Below, piece after piece: positions 35,208-36,053 of a stretch of DNA of 45,643 nucleotides (position 1 is the first letter of the stretch; every line of letters begins with the position of its first letter). Both the position numbers and the translations under genes were made by a program. Under the pieces are notes generated by a model that saw only the letters and a program-made list of their open reading frames with translations, was not told the DNA's origin and searched no databases. Origin of the DNA: Escherichia coli (GTDB lineage Bacteria; Pseudomonadota; Gammaproteobacteria; Enterobacterales; Enterobacteriaceae); assembly GCF_003334355.1 (NCBI RefSeq), contig NZ_QOWP01000030.1; one strand, written 5' to 3'.

Positions 35208-35465
35208 ATAGCAATCAAACCGAAGCCACATATGCGCGGCCAGATTGTTGACAAAGGGCGCTTTGTTCATGCCGGATACGGCATGAACGCTTTATTCGGT
35301 CTACAAAAGCAGGCAAATTCAATATATTGCAGAGATGATGTAGACACTGGCAAGCGTAGCGCATCAGGTAATTTTGCGTTTATCTTCACTCTCAAGCCAC
35401 GTATATGTGGCTTTATTTTTAACAAAATAATAACCCTGGGTGAGTTAATTATAATATAATTATAA

Positions 35466-35480
35466 GTTAATTAAATGTTA
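35466..35480 (+). promoter_or_regulatory. Candidate ArcA box GTTAATTAAATGTTA in the cydA upstream region
   Basis: Exact match to the ArcA direct-repeat consensus as I remember it, inside an extremely AT-rich segment about 570 bp upstream of cydA. Confidence 0.5.
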
Positions 35481-35705
35481 ATATTGGCGGGGTGGATTTA
35501 TGCCTTTATTAGTAATCCTGAAACTCTGCGTCGTATTAGCCAGTGACCAAAAAAAGAATTAAGGTCAACCGTGCTGTTTTTGCTTCGTCTCTTTTTATCT
35601 TTAATTGCCAACCGAAACTAATTTCAGCCTTATAACTCACACATTTTAAACATAAATGTCACTAAAGTTACCTTATTGAAACATGATTAACATAATTTGT
35701 AGGAA

Positions 35706-35719
35706 TTGATATTTATCAA
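35706..35719 (+). promoter_or_regulatory. Candidate FNR site TTGAT-ATTT-ATCAA upstream of cydA
   Basis: Perfect match to the FNR consensus TTGAT-N4-ATCAA, about 340 bp upstream of the cydA ATG. Confidence 0.65.
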
Positions 35720-36053
35720 TGTATAAGTCTTGGAAATGGGCATCAAAAAGAGATAAATTGTTCTCGATCAAATTGGCTGAAAGGCGGTAATTTAGCTATA
35801 AATTGATCACCGTCGAAAAATGCAAATTTGCTTCAACAAAAACCTGTTTATTGTAAGGATTTTGCGGCGTAATATATACGTGGGATCAATTTGAGTTTTT
35901 ATTAACATGTTTGCAACCTTTCTTTACGCCGTTTTTGTGTGCATTCACATGGTATGATGAAAGTGTTCAAACAAATTTCTATTGGGGCATGCGTGTGACC
36001 CTTTCTAACGGGGTTCACTCTCGGAGTCTTCATGCGATGAGCAAGGAGTCATG

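Follow-up and report, generated by a model that had tools for sequence, protein, structure and literature searches.

The window analyzed here is a 45,643-nucleotide stretch of Escherichia coli DNA, and within it we studied the 846-bp spacer at 35208-36053 (plus strand), the mngB-cydA intergenic region, which extends from the mngB stop codon at 35207 to the annotated cydA ATG at 36054. The gene order around it is mngA, mngB, then cydA, cydB, cydX, ybgE, ybgC, and tolQ, with the spacer placed directly 5' of cydA-cydB-cydX-ybgE. It aligns with the corresponding spacer of K-12 MG1655 (NC_000913.3 770612-771457) at 845 of 846 bases, a single nucleotide differing, and is 99.9-100% identical to the annotated E. 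coli genomes compared. A match was found in all of the 5426 complete E. coli genomes (5426/5426), at an identity of at least 99% in 3177. The spacer has a GC content of 36.5% versus 50.5% for the window, falling to 23% around the ArcA box. Flanking genes, identity to K-12, and composition together bear out the earlier note, which had read this DNA as an AT-rich cydA upstream regulatory region of 846 bp. The same note saw no convincing open reading frame here, and this holds: the sole candidate, a 75-aa frame at 35232-35459, runs across the REP-like repeats and the terminator of mngB, has no NCBIfam match, is unannotated in K-12, and was rejected as a gene. A 75-aa "hypothetical protein" over the REP-like repeats is annotated in some RefSeq genomes and is probably spurious. 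The palindromic stretch around the ArcA box that had been called AT-only is less regular than that, with 38 of 40 nucleotides A or T and inverted repeats only about 80% complementary.

Published K-12 positions were transferred by subtracting 734,627 from the U00096.2 coordinate, an offset verified by locating published sequences where predicted. A string search found ArcA sites cydA1 to cydA3, FNR sites 770333 and 770385, and transcription start 770509 each at the position that this offset gives; cydA1 has one mismatch and the others none. The features of the spacer and its flanks are collected in Table 1.

Table 1. Features of the mngB-cydA spacer and its flanks, in window coordinates
Feature	Position	Strand	Description
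mngB	32574-35207		Left flank of spacer; annotation
REP-like repeat pair	35270-35303 and 35340-35368	Inverted orientation	Degenerate, just 3' of mngB
mngB terminator, likely intrinsic	35394-35422	+	8-bp stem then TTTATTTTT; terminator scan and inverted-repeat search
Extra ArcA-box-like GGGTTATTATTTTGTTAA	35419-35436	-	16.1 bits, matrix scan; absent from the sites of Park et al.
ArcA site 1	35454-35484	+	Three direct repeats, core box 35464-35481, contains GTTAATTAAATGTTA; Park 2013 cydA1, 1 mismatch
ArcA site 2	35633-35684	-	Park 2013 cydA2 (770260-770311); ChIP peak centre at 35635
FNR site 1, TTGATATTTATCAA	35706-35719	+	Myers 2013 Table S6 site 770333, 14.9 bits, at FNR ChIP-seq peak
Promoter P1	35730-35766	+	Putative -35 TTGGAA 35730-35735, 17-nt spacer, putative -10 ATAAAT 35753-35758, start 35766
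FNR site 2, TTGTTCTCGATCAA	35758-35771	+	Myers 2013 Table S6 site 770385, 14.05 bits, at FNR ChIP-seq peak
Degenerate FNR-like site, TTGATCACCGTCGA	35803-35816	+	2 mismatches in right half (GTCGA); TTGATCACCGTCGAA is 35803-35817
Downstream promoter	35847-35882	+	-35 TTTATT, 17-nt spacer, -10 TAATAT 35870-35875, start 35882, 172-nt leader
ArcA site 3	35899-35929	-	Park 2013 cydA3 (770526-770556), exact match
Leader RNA hairpin	35995-36018	+	Between invariant UAUUGGGGCAUG and GGAGUCUUCAUGCGAUGAGCAAGGAGUC
Shine-Dalgarno AGGAG	36044-36048	+	Read from sequence; cydA start codon ATG 36054-36056 (RefSeq)
cydA	36054-37622		Right flank of spacer; annotation

The strongest element in the spacer is ArcA site 1. 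An ArcA box is taken here as two or more TGTTA-like elements directly repeated with a centre-to-centre spacing of about 11 bp; in the box that contains GTTAATTAAATGTTA (35466-35480), GTTAA lies at 35466 and again 11 bp on, at 35477. With a weight matrix built from 112 published boxes, the three cyd boxes left out, this box scores 22.0 bits, the highest value in the 45.6-kb window, which also holds the ArcA-regulated gltA/sdhC region. That region provided an internal positive control for the matrix. Its divergent promoter carries a cluster of matches at 19340-19730 with scores up to 16.4 bits, two of which are published sdhC ArcA box sequences. Site 1 coincides with site cydA1 of the ArcA ChIP-seq study of Park 2013 (U00096.2 770081-770111), which has both the top score (19.8 bits) and the top ChIP enrichment (8.6-fold) of the cydA sites in K-12. 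Park 2013 states that the ArcA peaks fall where DNase I footprints had been found earlier by Lynch & Lin 1996. Occupancy of site 1 by ArcA-P is thus documented at the orthologous K-12 site, by ChIP-seq and the cited footprints, and would extend to the present strain by sequence.

The single nucleotide by which the spacer differs from K-12 lies inside ArcA site 1, where this strain has T and K-12 has C. The K-12 box is GTTAACTAAATGTTA and scores 20.3 bits, and the change to the perfect GTTAATTAAATGTTA raises the score to 22.0 bits. An exact 61-mer around the site occurs in its window version in 239 complete E. coli genomes and in its K-12 version in 1381, and the "consensus" box is therefore a minority strain variant of a mapped site. 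The "consensus ArcA box" of the earlier note was thus placed correctly, on cydA1 and on the best match in the window, while its consensus form belongs to the strain and not to the site as mapped.

Two further ArcA sites, oriented on the minus strand, complete the published set. Site 2 gives matrix scores of 12.5, 10.6, and 13.0 bits, and site 3 scores 14.9 bits and contains a TTAAC...TG.AAC core that is invariant in 28 enterobacterial sequences. Measured from the P1 start, the three sites occupy -312 to -282 (site 1, about 300 bp upstream), -133 to -82 (site 2), and +134 to +164 (site 3), corresponding to about -590, -420, and -150 from the cydA ATG. The additional ArcA-like box GGGTTATTATTTTGTTAA contains the centre of a published ArcA ChIP-seq peak (770055, window 35428).

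FNR site 1 has no mismatch to TTGAT-N4-ATCAA, lies above the published genome-wide threshold (Myers Table S6), and is nearly invariant in the 28 sequences; the perfect FNR site predicted from the letters is one that had been mapped under an FNR ChIP-seq peak. According to Table 1 of Myers 2013, cydAB is directly repressed by FNR from a site at -53.5 of P1, and this position sets the P1 start at 35766. FNR site 2 is centred at -1.5 of P1, and the FNR ChIP-seq summit (U00096.2 770404) corresponds to window 35777 (Myers 2013). FNR site 2 thus overlies the P1 start, and site 1 occupies a helical-face-compatible position farther upstream. The window has one more perfect FNR consensus, TTGATCGAAATCAA at 28192-28205, which falls within a coding region (sucC by K-12 coordinates).

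Promoters were placed by published start sites. A generic promoter scan was rejected for this purpose, since its matches were at chance level and it missed P1, whose -10 hexamer would be ATAAAT. For the downstream promoter, Kim 2012 gives both the promoter sequence and the start site at 770509 (window 35882), and an anaerobic sigma-70 ChIP peak at 770509 coincides with this start (Myers 2013). Its promoter block is almost invariant between genera. Taken as an inventory, the earlier reading captured the main ArcA and the main FNR site, and missed ArcA sites 2 and 3, FNR site 2, the promoters, and the REP-like repeats.

The same layout recurs in related species. Using a degenerate pattern for the CydA N terminus, we retrieved 120 loci (about 118 species) from Enterobacterales genomes; 33 Enterobacteriaceae species, plus the class B1 allele of E. 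coli described below, were scanned for sites in detail. In many of these species the FNR-like and ArcA-like sites keep their order and lie at similar distances from the ATG, differing by up to about 50 bp, although at the thresholds used some species lack one site or another. The centre of FNR site 1 usually lies at -334 to -353 from the ATG, with two species outside this range and two having no site within one mismatch, and FNR site 2 lies 52 bp downstream of it. Of the ArcA boxes, the plus-strand one falls between -551 and -622, and the two on the minus strand between -410 and -430 and between -150 and -161. Recurring ArcA and FNR sites were seen in E. albertii, Citrobacter, Klebsiella, Enterobacter, Kluyvera, Atlantibacter, and others, and also in divergent E. 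coli alleles. When 60 loci were anchored on FNR site 1, the best FNR-like offset was +52, that of FNR site 2 (mean 3.98 mismatches), and the next best was +97 (4.23); the background stood at 6.99 +/- 0.60. Near-invariant elements in the alignments are FNR site 1, the P1 -10, the GATCAA of FNR site 2, ATTGATC-N3-GTCGA, the promoter block of start 35882, and the core of ArcA site 3.

The composition of the spacer raises the question of whether these motifs are chance matches, without specific function, in AT-rich H-NS-bound DNA: the ArcA consensus is itself AT-rich, and the GC content drops to 23% around the ArcA box. Against this, the ArcA box score was not reached once when the AT-rich spacer itself was dinucleotide-shuffled 1000 times, and the box is the sole match in 45.6 kb at up to two mismatches, where 0.07 were expected. 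The perfect FNR consensus, with both half-sites, occurs twice in the window against 0.07 expected, and only 3 of 1000 spacer shuffles produced one. Moreover, the ArcA box and FNR site 1 coincide with K-12 ChIP-seq peaks, and similarly placed sites are found in divergent alleles and in other genera. As an explanation, chance is thus contradicted by the findings on the ArcA box and on FNR site 1, hardly credible for the motifs as a set, and possible for the degenerate FNR-like site alone. A different function for ArcA site 1 deserves more weight, although we still regard it as improbable: the site could chiefly repress a separate promoter in the distal spacer, giving either an upstream cydAB transcript or a minus-strand transcript towards mngB, instead of activating cydAB. 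The sigma-70 ChIP peak at 770039 is stronger aerobically (262 versus 115; Myers 2013), the pattern expected of an ArcA-repressed promoter. A minus-strand TTAACA-17-TATATT (10/12) at 35481-35453 overlaps the ArcA box, a plus-strand TCTACA-17-TATATT at 35300-35328 is named as a constitutive promoter by Shimada 2014, and ArcA represses mostly by promoter occlusion (Park 2013). However, promoter-like matches in the region are at chance level (3 found versus 3.2 expected), and an ArcA box is kept at about -570 to -620 in many genera with differing upstream neighbours, which fits a role tied to cydA. The two roles are also not mutually exclusive, and a probable role of site 1 in activating cydAB remains the reading that we carry forward.

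The degenerate FNR-like site requires separate consideration. The earlier note had placed a second, degenerate FNR-like site near 35797; although its positions for the ArcA box and the first FNR site were exact, this one was about 6 nt off, the motif starting at 35803. No mapped site lies there, and the published second FNR site is TTGTTCTCGATCAA. With its mismatched right half, the motif scores too low for the published genome-wide FNR threshold and is missing from Myers Table S6, and FNR-like matches with two mismatches occur in the window near chance frequency (33 observed versus 24 expected). Even so, it is part of a 20-nt direct repeat (35753-35772 and 35798-35817, 45 bp apart), and in each copy an FNR-like site comes after a -10-like hexamer, ATAAAT; the first copy is the P1 -10 with FNR site 2, and the second carries the degenerate site. 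This second copy could mark a further FNR-controlled promoter.

It is conceivable, if doubtful, that TTGATCACCGTCGA is a genuine third, weak FNR operator over the start of such a promoter, with a -10 TATAAA/ATAAAT at 35797-35803. The repetition of the "P1 -10 plus FNR site 2" unit 45 bp 3' speaks for this, as do the offset of +97, second best over the 60 anchored loci, and the left half TTGATC, invariant in 27 of 28 sequences; the Citrobacter version, TTGATCACTATCGA, has a single mismatch. On the other hand, the right half is GTCGA and not ATCAA in nearly all genera: the motif is kept as TTGATC-N3-GTCGA in 23 of 28 sequences, with three more having ATCGA. Retention of GTCGA suggests selection for something besides FNR. 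The loci are also related, so that a conserved promoter block could explain the conservation alone, and ChIP-seq does not resolve sites 45 bp apart. The degenerate site is strongly conserved, yet conservation is no proof of FNR binding.

Between the downstream promoter and cydA, the leader contains a second kind of conserved element. When the segment between the two invariant anchors was folded for each variant, a hairpin formed in the same place in 35 of 35 distinct variants from 43 loci, with a stem of about 4-12 bp (mostly 7-12) and compensatory stem changes; the median z-score was -1.9, and 80% of the variants had z below -1.5. RNAalifold on the leader did not recover the hairpin, a failure that we attribute to alignment register shifts among genera, and folding the complete 91-nt leader as a single sequence gave nothing better than shuffled sequences did (z = +0.57). 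An Rfam scan of 34800-36400 at E <= 1 gave no family match to the hairpin; its sole hit in that range, to ES036, was sub-threshold (21.9 bits versus a gathering score of 37.6, E = 0.23) and was treated as chance. A literature search on the cydA mRNA and leader found no earlier report of such a hairpin. A Salmonella paper describes Gre-resolved pausing on a cydA template, and a link between this pausing and the leader hairpin may be envisaged as speculation. Just 3' of the hairpin there is a conserved GGAG-N5-AUG mini-ORF (AUG CGA UGA, 36032-36040), and CAAGGAGTCA at the Shine-Dalgarno sequence and start codon does not vary among 28 sequences. The conservation of the hairpin suggests a post-initiation control step that, so far as found, had not been described before.

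The distal spacer holds elements of other kinds. The two REP-like repeats agree with REP consensus sequences at 29 of 34 and 24 of 28 aligned positions (one gap); related copies occur in the window at 5551-5614 and 27266-27301, and the NC_000913.3 annotation has no REP at the equivalent of 35270-35368. The hairpin and T-run that follow are likely the intrinsic terminator of mngB. The aerobic-biased sigma-70 peak (770039, window 35412) adjoins ArcA site 1. In strain USDA-ARS-USMARC-51688 (L126:446-1143), an IS1 is inserted in the distal spacer at roughly window 35330, as estimated from the IS1 gene coordinates, upstream of all mapped ArcA and FNR sites; the remaining spacer is 100% identical to the window.

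These results identify the spacer, with a probability of about 93%, as the oxygen-responsive control region of the cydAB-cydX-ybgE operon of E. coli, which encodes the cytochrome bd-I oxidase. Five promoters are described in K-12, with H-NS marked in the spacer (Shimada 2014; PMC3037301). H-NS binding is taken from the literature, from the flag in Shimada 2014 and from Govantes 2000 as cited in Park 2013, and Myers Table S6 lists no H-NS overlap at FNR sites 770333 and 770385. In the mechanism established for K-12 in the literature, the AT-rich DNA is covered by H-NS, which keeps the promoters silent; as oxygen drops, ArcB phosphorylates ArcA, and ArcA-P at its sites lifts the silencing by antirepression. 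In full anaerobiosis, [4Fe-4S]-FNR bound over and upstream of the P1 start represses the promoters, so that cydAB expression peaks microaerobically. Both halves of this scheme have been stated before: the main action of ArcA at cydAB is to disrupt repression by H-NS (Park 2013, which cites Govantes 2000), and FNR repression yields maximal microaerobic cydAB expression (Myers 2013). The positions of the ArcA sites, far from the starts, fit anti-silencing over polymerase recruitment. Given the near-identity of the spacer to K-12, the source of all binding and expression data, we infer that the same mechanism would operate in this strain, with ArcA site 1 one base nearer the consensus.

Compared with the K-12 cydAB system (P1-P5), as represented in Cotter 1997, Govantes 2000, Lynch & Lin 1996, Park 2013, and Myers 2013 and in the citations among them, the window contains the same locus with all published sites kept. 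It shares with appY, hyaA, yfiD, and focA-pflB, other promoters activated by ArcA through antirepression with FNR as a co-regulator, the presence of ArcA sites without fixed position relative to the start site, an interplay with H-NS or FNR, and multiple promoters (Park 2013). Unlike in these systems, FNR at cydAB is a repressor over the start site, giving the microaerobic peak. The sites predicted for the ArcA box and the first FNR site coincide with experimentally mapped binding regions, and the finding is correct but already known, the spacer being a thoroughly characterized, textbook ArcA/FNR/H-NS oxygen-control region. Since footprinting and ChIP-seq had already mapped the ArcA and first FNR sites, the earlier reading is real but ordinary; its value is that of a positive control, in which the main ArcA and the main FNR site were found from sequence alone.

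In E. coli, the region upstream of cydA comes in at least three classes. Among the 5426 complete E. coli genomes, 2234 (about 41%) align to the spacer over its proximal ~375 bp alone, at about 81% identity. We distinguish a class A of about 3180 genomes, to which the window and K-12 belong, from a class B with subclasses of about 1120 and about 1108. Class A has mngAB upstream, whereas class B has either a hut/methylaspartate-mutase island (about 1120) or sucD and a TPR pseudogene (about 1108). The comparison used window 35208-35975 versus L002:3572-4376 and L125:2501-3141, regions that represent the two class B subclasses. Sequence 5' of -380 is unrelated between classes A and B; from -380 to -80 they are about 81% (local) or about 72% (global) identical, or roughly 20-28% divergent, and over the final ~80 nt of the leader they differ just twice, at about -76 and -80. 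In contrast, CydA has the same protein accession in each class (one representative genome per class), and the cydA coding sequences of the representatives are 98.6-98.9% identical.

ArcA and FNR site positions are preserved in all three classes. The layout of class B and E. albertii follows that of class A, with FNR sites at about -344, -292, and -247 and ArcA sites at about -568, -421/-381, and -155, and their ArcA boxes 2 and 3 score higher, at 20-21 bits. Between -380 and -80, class B and E. albertii agree at 92-93% of positions, in keeping with vertical descent. Class A is about equally distant from everything sampled; the 120 loci (about 118 species) yielded no donor for it, and the closest of them reached about 82% local identity. 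On these alignments we consider it evenly balanced whether class A is a promoter segment replaced by horizontal transfer or the ancestral Escherichia version, with a direction of the class A/B change that we infer. A full-text literature search found no earlier report of switching in the cydA intergenic region. If the replacement is true, the regulatory region ahead of a core respiratory operon would have been switched, and microaerobic expression might differ between strains. If the classes drive different cytochrome bd-I expression, this could bear on gut colonisation and stress tolerance between E. coli lineages.
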